Positions 3,406 through 24,687 of a DNA stretch of 24,687 nucleotides are shown one piece after another. This DNA comes from a virus (taxonomy: Duplodnaviria; Heunggongvirae; Uroviricota; Caudoviricetes), in IMG/VR virus record IMGVR_UViG_2711768042_000001, positions 1-24,687 of that record. One strand, written 5' to 3'. Numbering within the stretch: position 1 is the first letter of the stretch; each line of letters opens with the position of its first letter. The position numbers and the translations under genes are program-made. The notes under the pieces were generated by a model that searched no databases, was not told where the DNA came from, and was given only the letters and a program-made list of their open reading frames with translations.

Positions 3406-3825
3406 TTACTTAATGGCATCAAATCCAGCGTTGATGGCTTCCACAATATTGATGGCACTTGTTTTATCGAAGTGCCCATTCTGAATAAGCGCCGCATGCA
3501 GGCATTGTAACTTCATGTTGTATAAGTGTTCGCTCATGTAATCATTATCACTTTTTGCTTTAGCGTAAACAGCGCGAGAAATATCAAACACATCGCCTTT
3601 TTCCATTTCAGAACGTTGTGCTGTTATCCAGTCATGGAATGTAACGCTAGTACCATGGTCTTCGCTAAGAGTTAACCCGGCCAGTCCCTCACTCTGAATT
3701 ACTTCGTAATGCATTTCATTACCAGCAAAAACGCCATAAAAAACGCAGTCTTCAGCCTGAACGATACGAGAATATTTTAATGGCCATTCATTTAGATACT
3801 TAGCCAACATATCAATTGTTTTCAT
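3406..3825 (-). CDS. moron: hypothetical acidic cytoplasmic protein (139 aa)
   Basis: Only credible ORF on the minus strand here; ATG at 3825 preceded on the minus strand by AAGGTGAGA; bracketed by hairpin/T-run elements on both sides; opposite orientation to the structural genes. Confidence 0.6.
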   Translation of the reverse strand: MKTIDMLAKYLNEWPLKYSRIVQAEDCVFYGVFAGNEMHYEVIQSEGLAGLTLSEDHGTSVTFHDWITAQRSEMEKGDVFDISRAVYAKAKSDNDYMSEHLYNMKLQCLHAALIQNGHFDKTSAINIVEAINAGFDAIK

Positions 3826-3834
3826 GATCTCACC

Positions 3835-3860
3835 TTAAAAAAATGCCCGGCGACCCGGGC
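3835..3860 (-). terminator. terminator-like hairpin (GCCCGG-GTCG-CCGGGC followed by TTTTTTT on minus strand) just upstream of the moron RBS
   Basis: Plus-strand 3845-3860 GCCCGGCGACCCGGGC preceded by AAAAAAA; on the minus strand this is a GC stem followed by a U-run, lying between the tRNA and the moron. Confidence 0.5.
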
Positions 3861-4023
3861 GAACTGGAAGCAATGAGTTATGCCTTCCGTGGCTGTACTG
3901 GTTTACAGCATGAAGTCATCGCAATGGCGTCCTGCTGTAAAAAGGGCGGTAATAGTCCTTCAAGGGAAACTATCACCGCCAAGCACCTGGAACTTCTGGC
4001 ATCACGGTCCTTAGGCGTGATTC

Positions 4024-4100
4024 TGGCGTGGCATGCAGGATTCGAACCTGCGACCAACCGCTTAGAAGGCGGTTGCTCTGTCCAACTGAGCTAATGCCAC
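4024..4100 (-). tRNA. tRNA-Arg (anticodon UCU, decodes AGA), phage-encoded
   Basis: Reverse complement folds as a canonical cloverleaf: acceptor GTGGCAT/ATGCCAC, D-arm GCTC-AGTTGGACA-GAGC, anticodon arm ACCGC-CTTCTAA-GCGGT (anticodon TCT), T-arm GCAGG-TTCGAATC-CTGC, discriminator G and encoded CCA. Differs from E. coli argU as I recall it (from memory, not a comparison). Confidence 0.9.
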
Positions 4101-4422: not shown

Positions 4423-4437
4423 TTACCTGAAAGGTAA
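4423..4437. promoter_or_regulatory. palindromic motif TTACC-TGAAA-GGTAA (candidate operator), site 1 of 6
   Basis: Exact string; same motif class recurs at 20015, 20601, 22348 (imperfect), 23388, 23768, always intergenic. Confidence 0.4.
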
Positions 4438-4527
4438 TAATTAGTGCGTTAAATGTCAACTATCTACGATAAATAAATCATATGTGGTTAAATTGGTAAT
4501 AATTTAATTTCGTACGGAGTCATTGAT

Positions 4528-9273: not shown

Positions 9274-9293
9274 GGGGCTTCGGCCCCTTTATT
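9274..9293 (+). terminator. rho-independent terminator (GGGGC-UUCG-GCCCC then TTTATT)
   Basis: 5-bp GC stem with UUCG tetraloop at 9274-9287 followed by a T-rich run; located after the capsid-proximal gene block. Confidence 0.65.
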
Positions 9294-19400: not shown

Positions 19401-19445
19401 TGGATTGCGCCACTAATAAACCAAGTGGATCCGGTGATGCGTTAA
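16422..19445 (+). CDS. large internal virion/DNA-injection protein (gp16 position)
   Basis: 1007 aa, ATG overlaps upstream stop (TAATG); last gene of the + strand structural block before the accessory locus. Confidence 0.6.
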   Translation: MPFYPVSESNNNGFISAGLAIPEPDEQSFDVHPPEGKNPEPRPKEPSLLAAAIRQNNILAGFFRPARQFEPVEGYNPYADKNELHGYEYWGAKFADSRSPEETAWIKQQIDDENEDRRFISEAGLAGGIASATAMLFDPVTVASMFIPGAQGGALARIGSQIAIGAAGTALSEVVLNNQQITRSWGESAAHVAAGAMMSGVFASAGVALSPSVRAAATREVADALDNMSITSATDRAAASLSDGGSVGAMKIDTATLDDLTPVSGGWVGKAAWKAGSYLTPLTRLMESPSKTVRKTTLELAENNFTLKGNERGIETPVAVETRTRGWQREEAAVVVGNKQAYAKYKADGGDMSFDSFRQQVGNAMRSGDVHANPVVQETAQAMRTVLNRVKVEMQKLGLLPPDEELKALGQASYFPRIYKVGKIISERDKFRRILVDWWSRGNKTLDPEDAEIAADIVINKITGAKVPQDFVSVFSVKAAGSTKERTLNVPDSLIRDYLESDVNYVLQRHIREAAAEIELTRTFGKRTMTERLQLIEDEYDSLLREVPEKIKAKYDESVANLKARYESNGEVVPQGKLDSLMRKYEKELRKEQSRLSKSRANDLRDITALRDRLVGTYGMPDDPSSFFVRAGAFLRDVNFTTKLGGMTVSAIPDLARGVMVNGFRNTMKGYASQISQSPAFKASKEEMLKMGIGLETVLHSRSRAIGDLVDSSSRTTAVEAGMERITDAFGKLTLMDRFNDINKSMNGMLTSDGILSGAFSARRMAKLGINDNMAARIRSEFEKHGEVIDGWHIGNFDKWDDQYVAGVFQSAVLKDVNNTIITPGIGDTPLWASTPMGRTIFQFKSFTTASYNRALLGGLQEGTAQFYYGTAFQIALGSLVYALKEASKGKNVDWSPEKLVLEGIDRSGILGPLMEYNNMAEKATGGAVGLGALFGTGTQSRYASRGFVGSLFGPSFGLADSIIDVTAGVLNGDAGDRIVHNVRTLIPGNNLFWIAPLINQVDPVMR

Positions 19446-19466
19446 TCAATATTTATTGGAGTTCTT

Positions 19467-19994
19467 TCAATGGCTGTTTATGGCTTCTAAAGAAGCTTCT
19501 GCACTTATCGGCAAAGCAATAGTATCCTTGTTAGATGTGCTATTGCTTTCCAGAACTATGGAAATCCAATCCTCTTGGTTTTCATTAATTGTGCTGACAG
19601 CCATGATAGCATTCAAATCATTTTTATATATTTCTGATCGAATAAGACCTTTCCTGAATAATTTAGTTAAGTTTTCAGCTATCGACATCGCACGAATGCT
19701 AACTTTACTAAGCTCAATTGCGTCACTACCTGCGACTTTGGCGTGTTGAGAAAGAGCCATCAAAGCTATATGTGAAAATGTTTCTTCTTTTGAAAAACCG
19801 TTACTTAAAGACATGAGTGATACACCAGCTCCGTATGGAGTGAGTTTATATCCTGATACATTCAGTGCATGCTCTACAAAGGTAAGATCATCAGTTGTAG
19901 AAACATGCATATCGTTACTTTTTTGTTTTTTTGCAATAAATAAAAAAACAAAATTAATAATCACGATGCCGACGATGATTAAGAAAACTTCCAT
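19467..19994 (-). CDS. membrane-anchored accessory protein (single N-terminal TM); superinfection-exclusion candidate by position
   Basis: ATG 19994 with GAGG 7 nt upstream; N-terminus EVFLIIVGIVIINFVFLFIA is one TM helix; AT-rich; sits directly after the injection gene on the opposite strand, where P22 carries sieA. Confidence 0.6.
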   Translation of the reverse strand: MEVFLIIVGIVIINFVFLFIAKKQKSNDMHVSTTDDLTFVEHALNVSGYKLTPYGAGVSLMSLSNGFSKEETFSHIALMALSQHAKVAGSDAIELSKVSIRAMSIAENLTKLFRKGLIRSEIYKNDLNAIMAVSTINENQEDWISIVLESNSTSNKDTIALPISAEASLEAINSH

Positions 19995-20014
19995 TGCTTT
20001 TCCTCACAATAACA

Positions 20015-20029
20015 TTACCTTAAAGGTAA
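20015..20029. promoter_or_regulatory. palindromic motif TTACC-TTAAA-GGTAA, site 2 of 6
   Basis: Exact string 20-35 nt upstream of the 19994 start on the minus strand. Confidence 0.4.
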
Positions 20030-20054
20030 TATTTTGTGCTAATGTGATCAAGTG

Positions 20055-20453
20055 TTAAGTGTATACCTCCTGTTGCTCAGTGGTGATTTTACCCGGCAAC
20101 ACCTTTTTAGCTTTGTGCGGGTTAACCACATGGCCTTTAGTCCAGTACTCGTAGAGCACATCGTCACACTCTTCCTGATACTGGATTACCTTGTCGCGGA
20201 TTTCAGGGCGGACTTTGTTAGGGCTGATGCTGTTCAACCAAGCTGCCAATTTTCGTAAAGCCATACAAATCATGGCTTGCACCCCACCGGCAGAAGGTAT
20301 GGTGATTTCCACCATACCCTTCGAGAAGCGTTGAGAAATCTTCTTATGTTGAGATTTCCAGTCTAGCCCCATTCCCTCAACGATAGGTTTCATTGGGGTA
20401 TACGGTTCGCCGTTGTGATTGACAACATAAAGCTCTGCGCCGTGGAATGGCAC
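20055..20453 (-). CDS. antirepressor N-terminal-domain-like protein (P22_AR_N-like), possibly truncated
   Basis: N-terminus FHGAELYVVNHNGEPYTPMKPIVEGMGLDWKSQ...VIQYQEECDDVLYEYWTKG has the style of P22-antirepressor N-domains (from memory). Starts with GTG, no clear SD, only 132 aa, so may be a remnant. Confidence 0.45.
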   Translation of the reverse strand: MPFHGAELYVVNHNGEPYTPMKPIVEGMGLDWKSQHKKISQRFSKGMVEITIPSAGGVQAMICMALRKLAAWLNSISPNKVRPEIRDKVIQYQEECDDVLYEYWTKGHVVNPHKAKKVLPGKITTEQQEVYT

Positions 20454-20590
20454 GTTGATAGTAGTGACAAATTTGAAACATCGCTGGTTGTAAGCCAGCA
20501 GATGCTCGTTATTTTACGTCGCGGCACAATTTCTCGCTGCTGGCTCTTTTACACACATTAACCAAATATGGTTGATTTTAATATTTATAC

Positions 20591-20886
20591 GCGCTTATCA
20601 TTACCTTTGCGGTAAATTTACATTGCATTCCTCTTGTGCCATAGTAATCGGGCACTGGCAAAATCCAGTGTCGGGATTGGTCTCCCGGATTACTAAGTGG
20701 CGCATACCACGCCAGACGTGGTTTTTTTATGCGTATAGCACAGTCATGCCAGAATTATGGTGGGCTGAATGGGGGTCCGAAAGGACGCCGGTACCACTTA
20801 GGCCGGTAAGACCAACTCCGTTCAGTTCACCACCATCTGATTGGTCTCAGCGGTGGTGATGTAATTCGCTAAGTGGAGACGCCATC
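20591..20886 (+). promoter_or_regulatory. structured ~295-nt leader upstream of the AntA-like gene (copy 1 of an inverted pair)
   Basis: About 85-90 percent identical to the reverse complement of 23122-23412; contains TTACC-TTTGC-GGTAA (20601-20615), two stem-loops, an intrinsic terminator, then complementary sites AGACCAA (20809-20815) and TTGGTCT (20841-20847) before the RBS GGAG. Confidence 0.7.
20651..20727 (+). ncRNA. candidate C4-like antisense sRNA, copy 1 (SL1 CACUGG-CAAAAU-CCAGUG; SL2 CGGGA-UUGGUC-UCCCG; terminator CCACG-CCAGA-CGUGG then U7)
   Basis: Three consecutive hairpins ending in a U-run, about 77 nt; SL2 loop UUGGUCU is complementary to AGACCAA in the downstream leader. 5' end not determined. 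Confidence 0.45.
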
Positions 20887-21543
20887 ATGAACGCTCAACT
20901 CATCCCCGTATTCAACGGCACTATATCTAACGAAACAGCCCTACTTTGTAATGCCCGCGATCTGCACGCTTTTTTAGGTGTTAAAAAGGTGTTTGCAGCA
21001 TGGATTACAAATCGCATTTCAGAATACGAATTCATTGAAAATCAAGACTATATTTTGCTTTCCAATTTGGGAAAGCAAACATCTGGTAGAGGCGGCCACA
21101 ACCGCAAAGAGTACCACCTCACCCTTGATACAGCCAAAGAGCTGGCGATGGTCGAGCGTAACGAAAAAGGTCGCCAGATACGACGCTACTTCATTGAATG
21201 CGAGAAACGTTTAAGACAACAAGAAACAAAGGTGGAGAAGGTCTTGTCAGGCTTCATGCCAGCCATTATGGAGGCGATCAAGCTGGAAGACAAAAAAGAA
21301 TACAGCGCCCAACTGAAGCCCGGCTACCGCAGCCTGATTCATTCGCCGTCTGGTGTTCTCGGCCTGACGGAGAACTCACTGCTGATGAATTTGCTGAACC
21401 AGTTACAGGAAGACGGGCATGATGTATCGGGCGCGGCAGCGGAGCTGACCACCATGTTCTGCTACATCGTCGGTGTGAGCAAATGCCTGCGTGATATCCA
21501 GACGCACGCGGAGTACATCAACGACAAGGCAGGGTTCTTCTGA
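20887..21543 (+). CDS. antirepressor, AntA-type N-domain plus shared C-terminal domain
   Basis: ATG with GGAG 8 nt upstream; N-domain ...[16 protein letters not shown]...[30 protein letters not shown] matches the AntA pattern; the C-terminal 80 aa are near-identical to the C-terminus of the 22435..23121 gene. Confidence 0.75.
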
Positions 21544-21568
21544 CGAGCGGCGGCACAGGGATGTGCAA
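21301..21568. repeat. inverted repeat arm A (antirepressor C-domain coding plus 25 bp of 3' flank)
   Basis: About 94 percent identical to the reverse complement of 22410-22677. Confidence 0.8.
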
Positions 21569-21580
21569 AACGGAACTATC

Positions 21581-21592
21581 GTGACATGTCAC
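21581..21592. repeat. 12-bp perfect palindrome GTGACATGTCAC, copy 3 of 3
   Basis: Exact string between the antA stop and its terminator. Confidence 0.9.
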
Positions 21593-21593
21593 A

Positions 21594-21617
21594 GGCCGCT
21601 TTCGCGGCCTTGTTTTT
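21594..21617 (+). terminator. rho-independent terminator (GGCCGC-UUUC-GCGGCC then TTGTTTTT)
   Basis: 6-bp GC stem with tetraloop and T-run directly after the AntA-like gene. Confidence 0.7.
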
Positions 21618-21654
21618 AACGAATGCCACCGCCACCCGGGCGGGAATCCGCAGA

Positions 21655-21678
21655 CACAAAAAAGCCCGCGTCGCGGGC
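21655..21678 (-). terminator. rho-independent terminator for the minus-strand membrane-protein gene (GCCCGCG-AC-GCGGGC then U6 on minus strand)
   Basis: Plus strand AAAAAAGCCCGCGTCGCGGGC at 21658-21678, abutting the stop of the 21679..22218 gene. Confidence 0.65.
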
Positions 21679-22218
21679 TTACCAAAACTTGTACCACGGG
21701 GATTTATCCTTCAATGGACAATCCTTCCATCGTGTGGCCAACCATTCATATTCTTTAAAATATGTGTTTATGTTTTCTTTTTCTCTAATAGCTTGTATAA
21801 GAGGTAGCGCAATCTGATAGTTATTTACAACGGAGCTGTAAAATACTTCCTTAATCATGGTCTCATCATAAGTTTTCCGCTTCACGCTCACAGCCATGCG
21901 TTCGTAGAAACCTAGACAGTAAATTATTTCTCTCTTCTCTATCTTTTCTTCATCCGTAAGATCAGCCTGCCCATTGCTTGGATACATATAAGAGCGGAAT
22001 GATTTGTTCGATTCGTGAATGCGGCGCATAGTAGATAGGCCTTTCTTATAATCTACATCAAACCTGCTTTCACCAAGGAATACTGAAGTGTGTACTTTTC
22101 TCGCTGTATTTACATTATAAATAATAGTAGCGATAGCTATGAACAAGCCAAGCGAAACCGCGACTGCACTTACGATTTGAGCCACAGCCATGGCAAATTG
22201 CATTTCTTCACTTAACAC
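21679..22218 (-). CDS. membrane-anchored accessory protein (N-terminal TM helix), unknown function; exclusion/abortive-infection candidate
   Basis: GTG 22218 with GGAGA 6 nt upstream (alternative ATG at 22203); TM segment FAMAVAQIVSAVAVSLGLFIAIATIIY; own terminator; AT-rich; lies between the two convergent antirepressor cassettes. Confidence 0.6.
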   Translation of the reverse strand: MLSEEMQFAMAVAQIVSAVAVSLGLFIAIATIIYNVNTARKVHTSVFLGESRFDVDYKKGLSTMRRIHESNKSFRSYMYPSNGQADLTDEEKIEKREIIYCLGFYERMAVSVKRKTYDETMIKEVFYSSVVNNYQIALPLIQAIREKENINTYFKEYEWLATRWKDCPLKDKSPWYKFW

Positions 22219-22347
22219 AAACTGTCTCCAGACATGAAAACGGGGCCTAATGGCCCCGTCATTAAACTATCCGAATGTTAAACGCCTTCGTACTCGTCAA
22301 ATTTTCTCATGTGGGCTCCTCCTGTATCGGTGCCTAATCGCTATGGA

Positions 22348-22362
22348 TCACCCGTAAGGTAA
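22348..22362. promoter_or_regulatory. imperfect palindromic motif TCACC-CGTAA-GGTAA, site 4 of 6
   Basis: One half-site mismatch relative to TTACC-N5-GGTAA; intergenic, about 140 nt upstream of the 22218 start. Confidence 0.3.
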
Positions 22363-22409
22363 TAGTACTCTATTCACCCCCCTGTCTGCAATCGTACAGA
22401 ATTATTTAA

Positions 22410-22677
22410 AGGCACATCCCTGTGCCGCCGCCCGTCAGAAGACCCCTGCCTTGTCGTTGATGTATTCCGCGTGGGTCTGGATATCACGCAGGCATTTACT
22501 CACACCGACGATGTAGCAGAACATGGTGGTCAGTTCCGCCGCCGCGCCCGATACGTCGTGCCCGTCTTCCTGTAACTGGTTCAGCAGATTCATCAGCAGT
22601 GAGTTCTCCGTCAGGCCGAGAACACCAGACGGCGAATGAATCAGGCTGCGGTAGCCGAGCTTCAGTGGGGCGCTGTA
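22410..22677. repeat. inverted repeat arm B (antirepressor C-domain coding plus 3' flank)
   Basis: Reverse complement about 94 percent identical to 21301-21568. Confidence 0.8.
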
Positions 22678-23121
22678 GGTTTTGTTCTCTACCTTCATTG
22701 CCTGCATCACTGCTGATGCTGTGGCGCTGGCTACCTGGTCGGCAACCATCTTTATGCGTTCTTCCTGCGGGAGCGAGTTTTTAATGTAACTTCCGGTGCG
22801 GCGGATCTGAGGAAGAACCTCACCTGTAACCCATTTACGAAAGCGGTAGGGGGTAGTGCCTGGTGTCACCGCATCGCGGCAGCGGAGGATCAGTGTGTAG
22901 AGGCCTGACTCGTTGATAATATTGGTTTCGCCTTGACGGCCTAAGTTAAATTTAGCCCTTTCATCATCATCAAGAGATTTTATTGACATAGTGGGGTTTG
23001 TCAGTTGAAGAGCTTTAATAACGTCTTTGGCAACAAACCAAGGATTTCCATCAATAACAATGGCTCGAATGGTTGCTTCTGATTCAAAATGAAAAACAGA
23101 TGGGGTTACGTTAGCAGTCAT
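22435..23121 (-). CDS. antirepressor, Bro-N-type N-domain plus shared C-terminal domain
   Basis: ATG 23121 with AGGTGAT upstream (track ORF extends to 23274 but that N-terminal extension overlaps the conserved leader). Bro-N pattern: IDGNPWFVAKDVIKAL...NESGLYTLILRCR...YRFRKWVTGEVLPQIRRTGSY. Confidence 0.75.
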   Translation of the reverse strand: MTANVTPSVFHFESEATIRAIVIDGNPWFVAKDVIKALQLTNPTMSIKSLDDDERAKFNLGRQGETNIINESGLYTLILRCRDAVTPGTTPYRFRKWVTGEVLPQIRRTGSYIKNSLPQEERIKMVADQVASATASAVMQAMKVENKTYSAPLKLGYRSLIHSPSGVLGLTENSLLMNLLNQLQEDGHDVSGAAAELTTMFCYIVGVSKCLRDIQTHAEYINDKAGVF

Positions 23122-23274
23122 AGCGATCACCTTTGTAGTTAGGTTAATCACCACTACCGACGCCAATCGGTTGGTGGTGAACTGTGCAGGGTTGGCGTAA
23201 CCGGCTACAAAGGACCCGGCGCACCTTTCGGTGCCCCCACACAGCCCACCATAGAATAGGTGCGCTTTACACAT

Positions 23275-23352
23275 AAAAAAACCGCTTATGCGGCATATGT
23301 GCCTCTGTAGTAACTCGGGACGCCAATCCCGGCACTGGATTTTGCCAGTGCC
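23275..23352 (-). ncRNA. candidate C4-like antisense sRNA, copy 2 (SL2 loop UUGGCG; terminator CCGC-AUAA-GCGG then U7)
   Basis: Same three-hairpin architecture as copy 1; loop UUGGCGU is complementary to ACGCCAA (plus 23192-23198, read on minus) in its own leader. Confidence 0.45.
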
Positions 23353-23387
23353 CGATTACTATGGCACAAGAGGAGTGCGATGTAAAT

Positions 23388-23402
23388 TTACCGCAAAGGT
23401 AA
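23388..23402. promoter_or_regulatory. palindromic motif TTACC-GCAAA-GGTAA, site 5 of 6
   Basis: Exact string at the upstream end of leader copy 2, mirroring 20601-20615 in copy 1. Confidence 0.4.
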
Positions 23403-23433
23403 ATATAAGCACTCCATTTGGTAATTGCAAACC

Positions 23434-23691
23434 TTATCTGGTTTGTTTTCGTAATTGTTCGGCACAATAGTCGAGATGTGTTTGCAGATCCTGCATAGAC
23501 ATCTGTGAGCTGGTGACGTAGTTAATCAGTGCAGTCAGTTCGGCAAGTGGGCCATCGACATTAAATCCATCCTTATCGAGATCCCGGAGTAATTTCATCA
23601 AGTGCGATCCCTCCACCAGTGACCTGACGCCTCCCGGCGTGTGAATCCTTTCGGTAAATCCGTCTTCCAGTGGATAGTGATACTGCTGCAT
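23434..23691 (-). CDS. small protein (about 85 aa) homologous to the antirepressor C-terminal domain only
   Basis: ATG 23691 with GGAG 6 nt upstream (track start 23814 is probably too long because it would cover the LexA box and operator motifs). YHYPLEDGFTERIHTPGGVRSLVEGSHLMKLLRDLDKDGFNVDGPLAELT aligns with [50 protein letters not shown]. Confidence 0.55.
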   Translation of the reverse strand: MQQYHYPLEDGFTERIHTPGGVRSLVEGSHLMKLLRDLDKDGFNVDGPLAELTALINYVTSSQMSMQDLQTHLDYCAEQLRKQTR

Positions 23692-23710
23692 CTTATCTTC
23701 TCCATGCAAT

Positions 23711-23730
23711 AACTGTATATTTATACAGTA
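23711..23730. promoter_or_regulatory. LexA (SOS) box: AACTGTATATTTATACAGTA
   Basis: CTGT-N8-ACAG with an AT-rich spacer, 18 of 20 matches to the E. coli consensus TACTGTATATATATACAGTA; 20-40 nt upstream of the 23691 start on the minus strand. Confidence 0.6.
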
Positions 23731-23767
23731 GCAAATAATTTGTTTGCTATCCAGCACGTTTTGCAAA

Positions 23768-23782
23768 TTACCTGAAAGGTAA
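23768..23782. promoter_or_regulatory. palindromic motif TTACC-TGAAA-GGTAA, site 6 of 6
   Basis: Exact string, identical core to site 1 (4423-4437). Confidence 0.4.
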
Positions 23783-23886
23783 TATCTATTCGTATTTACA
23801 GTCTTTCTATCCATATGTGGTTTTCCAGGTAATAGAATAACCAGATATGCGGCGCAACGGGTGCTGCGACTATCTGGAGATTTAAC

Positions 23887-24687
23887 ATGACGGTCTCAAC
23901 CGAAGTTGACCACAACGAATACACCGGTAACGGCGTTACGACATCGTTTCCGTATACTTTTCGAATTTTCAGAAAATCAGACCTGGTTGTTCAGGTGTCT
24001 GACCTGAACGGAAACGTAACAGAATTGGTTCTGGATACCGGTTATACGGTAACTGGGGCGGGCACTTATAGTGGCGGTTCTGTGGTTCTTCCGTCTCCGC
24101 TTGCTACTGGATGGCGAATTACGATAGATCGTGTGCTTGATGTAGTGCAGGAGACAGACCTTCGCAATCAGGGAAAATTTTTCCCCGAAGTGCATGAAGA
24201 TGCCTTTGACTACCTGACGATGCTGATCCAGCAATGTTTTGGGTGGTTCAGACGTGCATTGATGAAACCATCTTTGCTTGCAAAATATTACGATGCAAAG
24301 CAAAACAAAATTTCTAACCTTGCAGATCCATCATTTGAGCAGGACGCTGTAAATAATCGCTCAATGCGTAATTATGTCGATGCTGCAATCGCCGGGGTTG
24401 TTGGTGGTTTTGGTTGGTTTATTCAGTATGGTTCTGGGGCTGTGTACCGAACGTTCCAGGATAAAATGCGTGATGCTATTAGCCCCAAAGATTTTGGAGC
24501 TGTTGGTGATGGTATAAATGACGATTCCACTGCAATAAGCGCGTGCCTTGAAGCCTCATCTCCAGGTTATAAAATTGACGGATTAGGGCTTACTTTTAAA
24601 GTATCAACTCTTCCGGATGTCAGTCGATTTAAAAATGCTCGTTTTTTATTTGAGAGAATACCGGGCCAGCCTCTTTTTTATGCTTCT
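23887..24687 (+). CDS. tailspike/tail fiber protein, N-terminal part (3' end outside the window)
   Basis: ATG 23887 with GGAGA upstream; open to the window end (267 codons); N-terminus TVSTEVDHNEYTGNGVTTSFPYTF is typical of tailspike adaptor domains, and DFGAVGDGINDDSTAI is the pectate-lyase-type beta-helix entry motif. Missing from the supplied ORF track because it has no stop in the window. Confidence 0.75.
   Translation, partial: MTVSTEVDHNEYTGNGVTTSFPYTFRIFRKSDLVVQVSDLNGNVTELVLDTGYTVTGAGTYSGGSVVLPSPLATGWRITIDRVLDVVQETDLRNQGKFFPEVHEDAFDYLTMLIQQCFGWFRRALMKPSLLAKYYDAKQNKISNLADPSFEQDAVNNRSMRNYVDAAIAGVVGGFGWFIQYGSGAVYRTFQDKMRDAISPKDFGAVGDGINDDSTAISACLEASSPGYKIDGLGLTFKVSTLPDVSRFKNARFLFERIPGQPLFYAS

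Follow-up and report, generated by a model that had tools for sequence, protein, structure and literature searches.

An SOS-linked region with two RNA-gated antirepressor cassettes as the probable secondary-immunity and induction locus of a phiV10/epsilon15-type podovirus of Escherichia coli

Here, we describe an accessory block at positions 19467-23886 of the IMG/VR virus record IMGVR_UViG_2711768042_000001 (24,687 nt, analyzed over its full length and called the window throughout). The sequence evidence suggests, with a probability of roughly 70%, that this block is a secondary-immunity and induction region of a phiV10/epsilon15-type temperate podovirus, which combines an SOS trigger, two RNA-gated antirepressor cassettes, and palindromes that are putative operators of the primary repressor Rep. 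Every component belongs to a described family. The locus unites the LexA-controlled antirepressor Ant of phage SPC32H, P1-type antisense control by C4 RNA, and the IsrK RNA of Gifsy-1, which have until now been studied apart. In the accessible literature, which does not include the primary SPC32H papers, we found no description of Bro-N or AntA joined to an SPC32H-Ant-like domain in a gene that C4/isrK controls, of such gated fusions near an SPC32H-type ant, of a multi-allelic code of the pairing elements a and b, or of two non-matching cassettes stacked in one genome. A preceding sequence-only reading had proposed an SOS-linked, multi-antirepressor hub for induction and anti-immunity; this was largely right and is here reframed as a Rep/Ant system of the phiV10/SPC32H type in which C4 acts much as in P1.

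The window represents the late (virion) half of a phiV10/epsilon15-type, Uetakevirus-like temperate podovirus of Escherichia coli. Its nearest phage is TL-2011b (81% of the window covered, 97% identity), followed in similarity by phiV10, phiv142-3, the O157 typing phages 9 and 10, and vB_EcoP_ZX5, and the gene order from the small terminase to the tail fibre is the same as in phiV10. The P22-type phage setting assumed previously has to be given up, as the backbone is phiV10/epsilon15-like. The block fills exactly the gap between the gene of a 1007-aa internal virion protein (stop at 19445), which is the last gene of the plus-strand virion operon before the block, and the tail fibre gene. It is a real, mostly minus-strand accessory locus of about 4.4 kb, with five of its six open reading frames (ORFs) on the minus strand and all features listed by the sequence-only reading at or near their positions (Table 1). 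Its description as AT-richer holds for 19501-20000 (GC 0.35), the only clearly AT-rich part, and fails for the rest, where GC (0.45-0.53) is the same as in the flanks. Parts of the block occur in 1374 of 5426 complete E. coli genomes (about one quarter), and phages of enterohaemorrhagic E. coli strains are among the carriers, which makes the induction of such prophages of practical interest.

Table 1. Features of the accessory block and associated sites, in window coordinates.
Feature	Position	Strand	Evidence or remark
175-aa protein, one N-terminal transmembrane helix	19467-19994	-	phrog_21690, E 7.5e-104, unknown function
Rep-operator-type palindrome TTACCTTAAAGGTAA	20015-20029		just downstream of promoter-like site of 175-aa gene
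Promoter-like site of 175-aa gene, TTAACA-16-CAAAAT	20058-20031	-	
Truncated P22/CUS-3-type ant, N-domain only, 132 aa	20055-20453	-	Pfam P22_AR_N, E 1.3e-44
Motif CATATGTGGTT	4479-4489, 23812-23822	+	
Motif CATATGTGGTT	20560-20570, 23839-23849	-	
Rep-operator-type palindrome	20601-20615		abuts -35 of cassette-1 promoter
Promoter-like site of isrK-1, TTTACA-17-CATAGT (TG-extended)	20617-20645	+	9/12 consensus; ends 6 nt before isrK match
isrK-1 RNA with intrinsic terminator 20706-20722	20652-20728	+	Rfam RF01394, 65.5 bits
isrK-1 elements	a1 20677-20683; b1 20693-20700	+	a1 TTGGTCT; b1 CTAAGTGG
C4 antisense RNA-1	20753-20837	+	Rfam RF01695, 61.2 bits
C4-1 elements	b' loop 20794-20801; a' junction 20809-20815	+	b' CCACTTAG; a' AGACCAA
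ant-1 leader	20838-20886	+	a2 20841-20847 (TTGGTCT); b2 20869-20876 (CTAAGTGG)
218-aa antirepressor, AntA N-domain and SPC32H-Ant-like C-domain	20887-21543	+	Pfam AntA, E 3.9e-26
Inverted repeat, 282 nt, 94% identity	21285-21566 and 22412-22693		common C-domain coding sequence
Intrinsic terminator ending cassette 1	21593-21610	+	
Strong intrinsic terminator ending minus-strand unit	21680-21662	-	convergent with 21593-21610(+)
DUF4760 protein, 179 aa, N-terminal transmembrane helix and helical bundle	21679-22218	-	Pfam DUF4760, E 1.6e-30
10-codon ORF (MRKFDEYEGV), strong Shine-Dalgarno, then GC-rich hairpin and T-run	22237-22310	-	upstream of DUF4760
Rep-operator-like palindrome, one mismatch	22348-22362		upstream of DUF4760 unit
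228-aa antirepressor, Bro-N N-domain and SPC32H-Ant-like C-domain	22435-23121	-	Pfam Bro-N, E 4.5e-20
ant-2 leader	23122-23169	-	a2 23160-23166 (TTGGCGT); b2 23130-23138 (CTACAAAGG)
C4 antisense RNA-2	23170-23256	-	Rfam RF01695, 79.5 bits
C4-2 elements	b' 23205-23213; a' 23192-23198	-	b' CCTTTGTAG; a' ACGCCAA
isrK-2 RNA with terminator 23294-23281	23275-23351	-	Rfam RF01394, 74.2 bits
isrK-2 elements	a1 23320-23326; b1 23302-23310	-	a1 TTGGCGT; b1 CTACAGAGG
Promoter-like site of cassette 2, TTTACA-17-CATAGT	23386-23358	-	
Rep palindrome of cassette 2	23388-23402		abuts -35 of isrK-2 promoter
86-aa SPC32H-type antirepressor (small Ant)	23434-23694	-	PDB 5D50_E; phrog_450
LexA box TACTGTATAAATATACAGTT (20-mer)	23709-23728	-	18/20 consensus positions; ~19 nt upstream of small ant ATG
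Rep palindrome between divergent small ant and tail fibre	23768-23782		identical to 4423-4437, upstream of portal operon
Tail fibre gene	ATG 23887	+	begins MTVSTEVDHNEY; virion operon restarts here

The small Ant is the predicted SOS trigger. It is near-identical to the Ant of the epsilon15-like Salmonella phage SPC32H (PDB 5D4Z, 5D50), with matches to chain E of 5D50, 'Anti-repressor protein', over residues 3-85 (E 3.5e-47) and to phrog_450 (E 5e-48). As in SPC32H, a LexA box (core CTGTATATTTATACAG at 23713-23728) stands immediately upstream of the gene; its position is conserved across related IMG/VR loci, and the Rep of the relative phiV10 matches 5D50_A (E 4e-42). The standalone antirepressor C-domain protein behind a LexA box had thus been recognized correctly from the letters. 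A longer, 126-aa ORF of small ant begins upstream of the box. The bare CTGT-N8-ACAG pattern is unenriched in the window (8 found versus 8.7 expected), and the significance of the LexA box therefore derives from its full match, its position, and its conservation across the related loci. Two papers citing the SPC32H work state that tetrameric Ant takes apart the Rep tetramer. The SPC32H Ant is reportedly under LexA repression, and its tetramer is said to have been found by experiment to dismantle the non-cleavable tetrameric repressor Rep, in work attributed to Kim & Ryu 2013 (J Virol) and Kim et al. 2016 (PNAS). By this homology and the conserved, predicted LexA site, host LexA would silence the small Ant in the phage studied here, DNA damage would free it, and the freed small Ant would strip tetrameric Rep from its operators. 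The window further contains two isrK/C4-gated genes in which a diverged second Ant domain is fused to Bro-N or AntA; we found no such genes described downstream of the SPC32H ant in the accessible literature, to which the primary papers do not belong. Elsewhere in the window, a second minus-strand insertion (3406-4100) separates the large terminase gene of the virion operon from the portal gene. It comprises a 139-aa ORF (3406-3825) and a tRNA-Arg(TCT) (4024-4100), between which lies a CTGT-N8-ACAG core (CTGTACTGGTTTACAG, 3893-3908) that is conserved in phiV10.

Both cassettes encode an isrK RNA, a C4 RNA, and an ant gene with a short leader. All four RNAs exceed the Rfam gathering scores (isrK, 50 bits; C4, 45 bits), so that the two riboregulatory leaders of the sequence-only reading proved to be isrK and C4 pairs; phiV10 carries one such pair at the equivalent place. 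In the minimum-free-energy folds of the C4 RNAs, b' (the loop of the second hairpin) and a' (the junction 3' of b') are both unpaired, and a1 and b1 are located in the loop of isrK hairpin 2 and in the isrK linker, respectively. The exact complements of both segments of each C4 are present twice, namely within the isrK of the same cassette and at the start and Shine-Dalgarno sequence of the ant leader, where b2 overlaps a GGAG (20875-20878) in cassette 1 and covers an AAGG in cassette 2. Pairing energies were computed from the unpaired C4 segments only, as whole-molecule duplex energies are uninformative because both partners become unfolded. Cognate pairing (7 bp plus 8-9 bp) amounts to -9.2/-12.4 and -10.3/-12.0 kcal/mol, versus -3.4/-5.3 and -4.9/-5.4 kcal/mol for pairing across cassettes (4-5 bp plus 5-6 bp). 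Given the different a and b sequences and the weak cross-pairing, each C4 is therefore predicted to control its own ant only, with no cross-talk. Such natural, sequence-defined RNA/target pairs without cross-reaction are fit for swap tests and for reuse as small translational switches.

In the immI operon (c4-icd-ant; Citron & Schuster 1990) of phages P1 and P7, C4 represses ant as an antisense RNA; it is made in P1 lysogens, and the P1 elements are laid out as a1 b1 - c4(a' b') - a2 b2. The cassettes share with this operon the C4 covariance-model match, a C4 encoded upstream of its target in one transcription unit, complements of a'/b' repeated upstream (a1/b1) and downstream (a2/b2), b2 over a ribosome-binding site, allelic a/b variants that set specificity (P1 versus P7), and a primary-repressor operator, putative in the present phage, at the promoter. 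They differ in that no icd ORF is present (neither cassette has a conserved ORF between C4 and ant) and b2 lies directly on the ant Shine-Dalgarno sequence, in the family of the Ant, in the placement of a1/b1 in a terminated small RNA (isrK), and in the number of cassettes per genome (two) and of a/b combinations in the population (at least seven). We infer the following course of control. Briefly, C4 is presumably excised from a read-through transcript, as in P1/P7 immI; the invariant 3' ...CACCACCA after the C4 outer stem is compatible with release by RNase P. Pairing of a'/b' with a2/b2 would then block ribosome binding on ant, and C4 would cap Ant synthesis after infection such that lysogeny can be established. 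The short isrK RNA, which holds both target sequences, might serve as a decoy for C4 or as a termination modulator, in line with the activation by IsrK that is seen in Gifsy-1; a simple reading of IsrK is that its a1/b1 lure away a repressor of the C4 type.

Covariation among relatives is in agreement with this pairing scheme. Our sample of 87 cassettes, 34 of them distinct, stems from 80 IMG/VR loci encoding the same small Ant, E. coli prophages, and phiV10. It contains three a-variants (GGTCT, GGCGT, TGCAC) and four b-variants (CTACAAAGG, CTAAAAGG, CTAAGTGG, CTAGTAGG) in seven observed combinations. In all 34 distinct cassettes, the complementarity between C4 and the leader of the same cassette is perfect, and C4 also complements the isrK of its cassette in 33 of them, the exception being cassette type T24 at locus L018. 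The palindrome and promoter upstream of isrK are nearly invariant throughout the sample, and the nearly invariant C-domain of the encoded proteins is preceded by one of five kinds of N-terminus, namely AntA or any of four Bro-N subtypes. Most loci hold one cassette; seven hold two, all arranged like the window, and one holds three, with the two-cassette layout also found in several E. coli prophages. Cassette 1 is 99.6% identical to cassettes that stand alone in other phages. From these sequence comparisons, the cassettes look like exchangeable units that are flanked by conserved sequence on either side, with the promoter/isrK 5' end at the front and the C-domain at the back. Co-resident cassettes differ in a and/or b at all eight loci with more than one; selection for different specificity is not claimed, as a probability of about 0.14 is calculated for this outcome by chance.

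The locus with three cassettes (L018, 6344-10960) includes T24 as its middle cassette (isrK start at 9278, minus strand), in which a1 is TTGGCGT and a' of its own C4 is AGACCAA, as expected of a recombinant. DUF4760 is joined to the distal cassette there, versus the proximal one in the window. At several IMG/VR loci, about 830 additional bases separate small ant and isrK. In one cassette class (b = CTAGTAGG; types T12 and T21), found at L054 (6158-6700) and at two other loci, the driven gene encodes a 168-aa protein (MPGQKISNDDLYW...) with neither a Bro-N or AntA domain nor a C-domain like that of Ant, so that antirepressors are not the only proteins behind an isrK/C4 gate.

The two gated genes of the window encode antirepressor fusions. 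The 218-aa protein matches phrog_377 ('anti-repressor Ant') and, across residues 135-216, phrog_450, and the 228-aa protein matches phrog_130 and phrog_450. Their C-terminal 125 residues are 74% identical; the small Ant and the C-terminal part of the Bro-N protein have 42% identity over 74 residues. A long ORF reaches from the Bro-N gene back to 23274, and since it runs through the RNA genes, the true start is taken to be the ATG at 23121. Homology searches thus bear out the claimed relation to the Ant, Bro, and AntA families. All three antirepressor N-domain types named by the sequence-only reading are Pfam matches, with the qualification that P22_AR_N is present as one truncated remnant. The stretch from about 22410 to 24000 is 96% identical at the nucleotide level to vB_EcoP_ZX5 (megablast), spanning its annotated anti-repressor. 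Overexpression of this Bro-N anti-repressor (ORF4) decreased ZX5 lysogeny about 1000-fold and reduced repressor transcription (PMC9782041). Once LexA cleavage has started derepression, the large RNA-gated Ants might reinforce or widen it, acting on their own Rep and/or on repressors of co-resident prophages.

A 15-bp palindrome, TTACC-N5-GGTAA, ties the block to the primary repressor. It occurs eight times in the window (0.4 expected) and 14 times in phiV10 (0.7 expected), where one pair of sites separates the Rep gene from the cro-like gene and another pair stands where the leftward early operon begins. On this basis, we take the palindrome as the putative Rep operator. Its presence at every transcription unit of the block would place these units under the primary repressor by analogy to the C1 operators in P1. 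Additional copies in the window form a tandem just before the start of the small terminase gene (1215-1229 and 1233-1247) or precede the portal operon (4423-4437). Genome-wide, the palindrome is also found before the lysis genes and the integrase gene and after early terminators, a spread that resembles the dispersed C1 operators of P1.

Transcription of the block can be outlined from its signals. On the minus strand, small ant is followed by isrK-2, C4-2, the Bro-N ant, the 10-codon ORF with its hairpin, and DUF4760. No terminator-like structure exists on this strand between small ant and isrK-2, and LexA-controlled transcription can therefore feed cassette 2 and end at the minus-strand terminator, one of the two convergent terminators that the sequence-only reading had rightly pointed out. 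Cassette 1 would rely on its own promoter, and cassette 2 would additionally be fed by SOS transcription. The tail fibre gene downstream had been predicted to require read-through or its own promoter. Its upstream region carries a Rep palindrome and the motif CATATGTGGTT, both in common with the portal operon, which favours a separate promoter. This motif occurs four times in the window (0.55 expected) and seven times in phiV10 (0.83 expected), where all copies except one have a Rep palindrome no more than about 70 nt away; two copies upstream of the tail fibre gene make an inverted repeat. The motif might belong to a promoter or be bound by a second regulator.

Several observations weigh against our interpretation of the block. 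The Rep gene and the immunity region lie beyond the limits of the window. The C-domain of the large fusions is just 42% identical to the small Ant, which leaves their Rep binding unassured. The promoter-like matches are weak (9/12) and unenriched (11 versus 8.2 +/- 3.1 in shuffled sequence), and at the isrK promoters the palindrome abuts the -35 element from upstream, a position at which repression, activation, and no effect are all possible. The a1 mismatch of the L018 T24 isrK to its own C4 indicates that a1 pairing is not strictly kept, and the difference between co-resident cassettes at the eight loci would be expected by chance with the probability given above, as computed from the observed type frequencies. 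The coupling ORFs icd of P1 and orf45 of Gifsy are not conserved, and translational control may differ in detail.

It is possible, if clearly the less probable view, that the large fusions hit repressors of other prophages, or DNA, rather than their own Rep, which would make the locus a tool for cross-induction between prophages with a C-domain that only tetramerizes. A constant C-domain combined with variable N-domains (AntA and the four Bro-N subtypes) would suit such a role, as would the limited identity of this C-domain to the Rep-binding small Ant, and trans-acting antirepressors of Gifsy phages are reported to coordinate several prophages (PMC3121763). However, overexpression of ORF4 in ZX5 diminished lysogeny and repressor transcription of the phage itself (PMC9782041), and the constant part is a domain homologous to a proven Rep binder. 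Cross-induction and a secondary-immunity and induction region are compatible and not exclusive. It is intriguing to propose, very tentatively, that in E. coli Uetakevirus-like prophages a multi-allelic RNA address code (at least three a- and four b-variants) gates interchangeable antirepressor cassettes whose N-domains aim a Rep-type domain at different targets, so that one SOS trigger would fan out to independently gated outputs against co-resident prophages.

The cassettes might also operate as in Gifsy-1 of Salmonella. There, the read-through transcript of IsrK encodes an antirepressor, IsrK activates antirepressor translation in trans, and a processed stable RNA, STnc1160, is made from the position equivalent to C4 here (PMC4825925); IsrK and STnc1160 are both abundant in lysogens. 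Transferred to the present block, the read-through transcript would fold into a silent form that the short IsrK opens in trans via an ant-coupled upstream ORF, and C4 would not be an antisense repressor. An experimental model exists for this homologous isrK-orf45(STnc1160)-anrP locus, which shares with the cassettes the isrK covariance-model match (65-74 bits here) and a terminated short RNA with read-through into an antirepressor gene. Yet the phage type and the antirepressor differ, and no orf45-like ORF is conserved here: the frame from the ATG after the isrK-1 terminator has 26 codons and stops inside C4, and its cassette-2 equivalent runs in frame into ant. Moreover, b2 lies on the ant Shine-Dalgarno sequence and covaries with a'/b' in 34 of 34 cassette types, as predicted for an antisense repressor. 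We therefore consider a pure Gifsy-1 mechanism rather unlikely; the P1 and Gifsy-1 models can be merged if IsrK is a C4 decoy. Hershko-Shalev et al. 2016 (PMC4825925) did not interpret STnc1160 as an antisense RNA that, like C4, represses at the ribosome-binding site of ant.

Improbable, too, is that the distal half of the block (19467-21610) is non-functional recombination debris, in which a duplicated cassette and pieces of genes stayed behind after P22-like and phiV10-like phages had exchanged DNA. In favour of this, the P22-type ant lacks both of its ends, its slot is filled by a complete Arc and Ant module in TL-2011b, and none of the 5426 complete E. coli genomes holds at least 80% of the 4.6-kb block in one place. 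Cassette 1, in contrast, is intact, with all a/b elements matched and the near-identity to sole cassettes of other phages mentioned above, and the two-cassette layout recurs in seven other loci and several E. coli prophages. Least probable of the alternatives, and very unlikely, is a P22-type immI and sieA region with membrane proteins for superinfection exclusion. The map position between ejection-protein genes and tailspike gene is like that of P22 immI (mnt-arc-ant-sar) and sieA, a P22_AR_N domain and two single-pass membrane proteins are present, and the slot holds the complete module in the nearest phage. Against this stand the Uetakevirus-like backbone and control by C4/isrK RNAs, Rep palindromes, and LexA; tblastn and blastn found no homologue of Mnt, Arc, sar, or SieA in the window. 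Rep palindromes also precede the membrane-protein genes, which would argue against their expression in the repressed prophage if Rep represses there. With no mnt, arc, sar, sieA, or full-length ant in the window, membership in P22 immI/sieA was rejected; the label immI-like survives for the C4/isrK logic of the P1-immI and Gifsy-isrK kind only.

The truncated P22-type ant is a recombination remnant and the 175-aa and DUF4760 proteins are cargo; none of them are core parts of the region. The remnant is 97% identical to CUS-3 ant (924 nt) at the nucleotide level over 20068-20464 only (397 nt), and aligns to residues 15-134 of the 300 residues of P22 Ant (tblastn: 10-134), i.e., both ends are truncated. 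By inspection, it has a GTG start without a Shine-Dalgarno sequence, and PGAP annotates it in relatives as a pseudogene lacking the C-terminus. In TL-2011b (L088; 1561-2745 and 4654-5742), an Arc-like repressor and a full-length, 314-aa P22-type Ant occupy the cassette-1 slot, from which we conclude that this slot takes part in exchange with immI regions of the P22 kind; TL-2011b also has an unannotated stretch of about 1.1 kb that separates its Bro-N ant from its small ant.

Both cargo proteins have exactly one hydrophobic segment, which is N-terminal (residues 3-21 in the 175-aa protein), as the sequence-only reading had described. The 175-aa protein has no match in Pfam, PADLOC, or NCBIfam and no tblastn match in GenBank phages; its nine homologues all come from E. 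coli and E. albertii, and its AlphaFold2 (AF2) model (predicted local distance difference test, pLDDT, 55) is too poor for a structure search. For the DUF4760 protein (AF2 pLDDT 88), Foldseek against the PDB returned nothing better than E 0.6, and the best likeness, to EDS1-type helical domains (template modelling score ~0.5), was treated as noise. The suggested link to superinfection exclusion was not borne out: PADLOC gave no match for any of the six block proteins, NCBIfam none for defence or exclusion, neither membrane protein is similar to SieA, and no informative fold match was obtained. The comparison with related genomes proposed earlier did reveal variable cargo, since the slot between the convergent cassettes, which holds DUF4760 here, is occupied by a YafO toxin and other small genes in TL-2011b and by other small proteins elsewhere. 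The 10-codon ORF and hairpin upstream of DUF4760 might function as a leader-peptide attenuator or be all that is left of a former gene. At the opposite end of the block (19443-19469), merely 21 bp separate the stops of the 1007-aa gene on the plus strand and the convergent 175-aa gene. No terminator-like structure is found in this gap, and late transcription would therefore enter the accessory block antisense.

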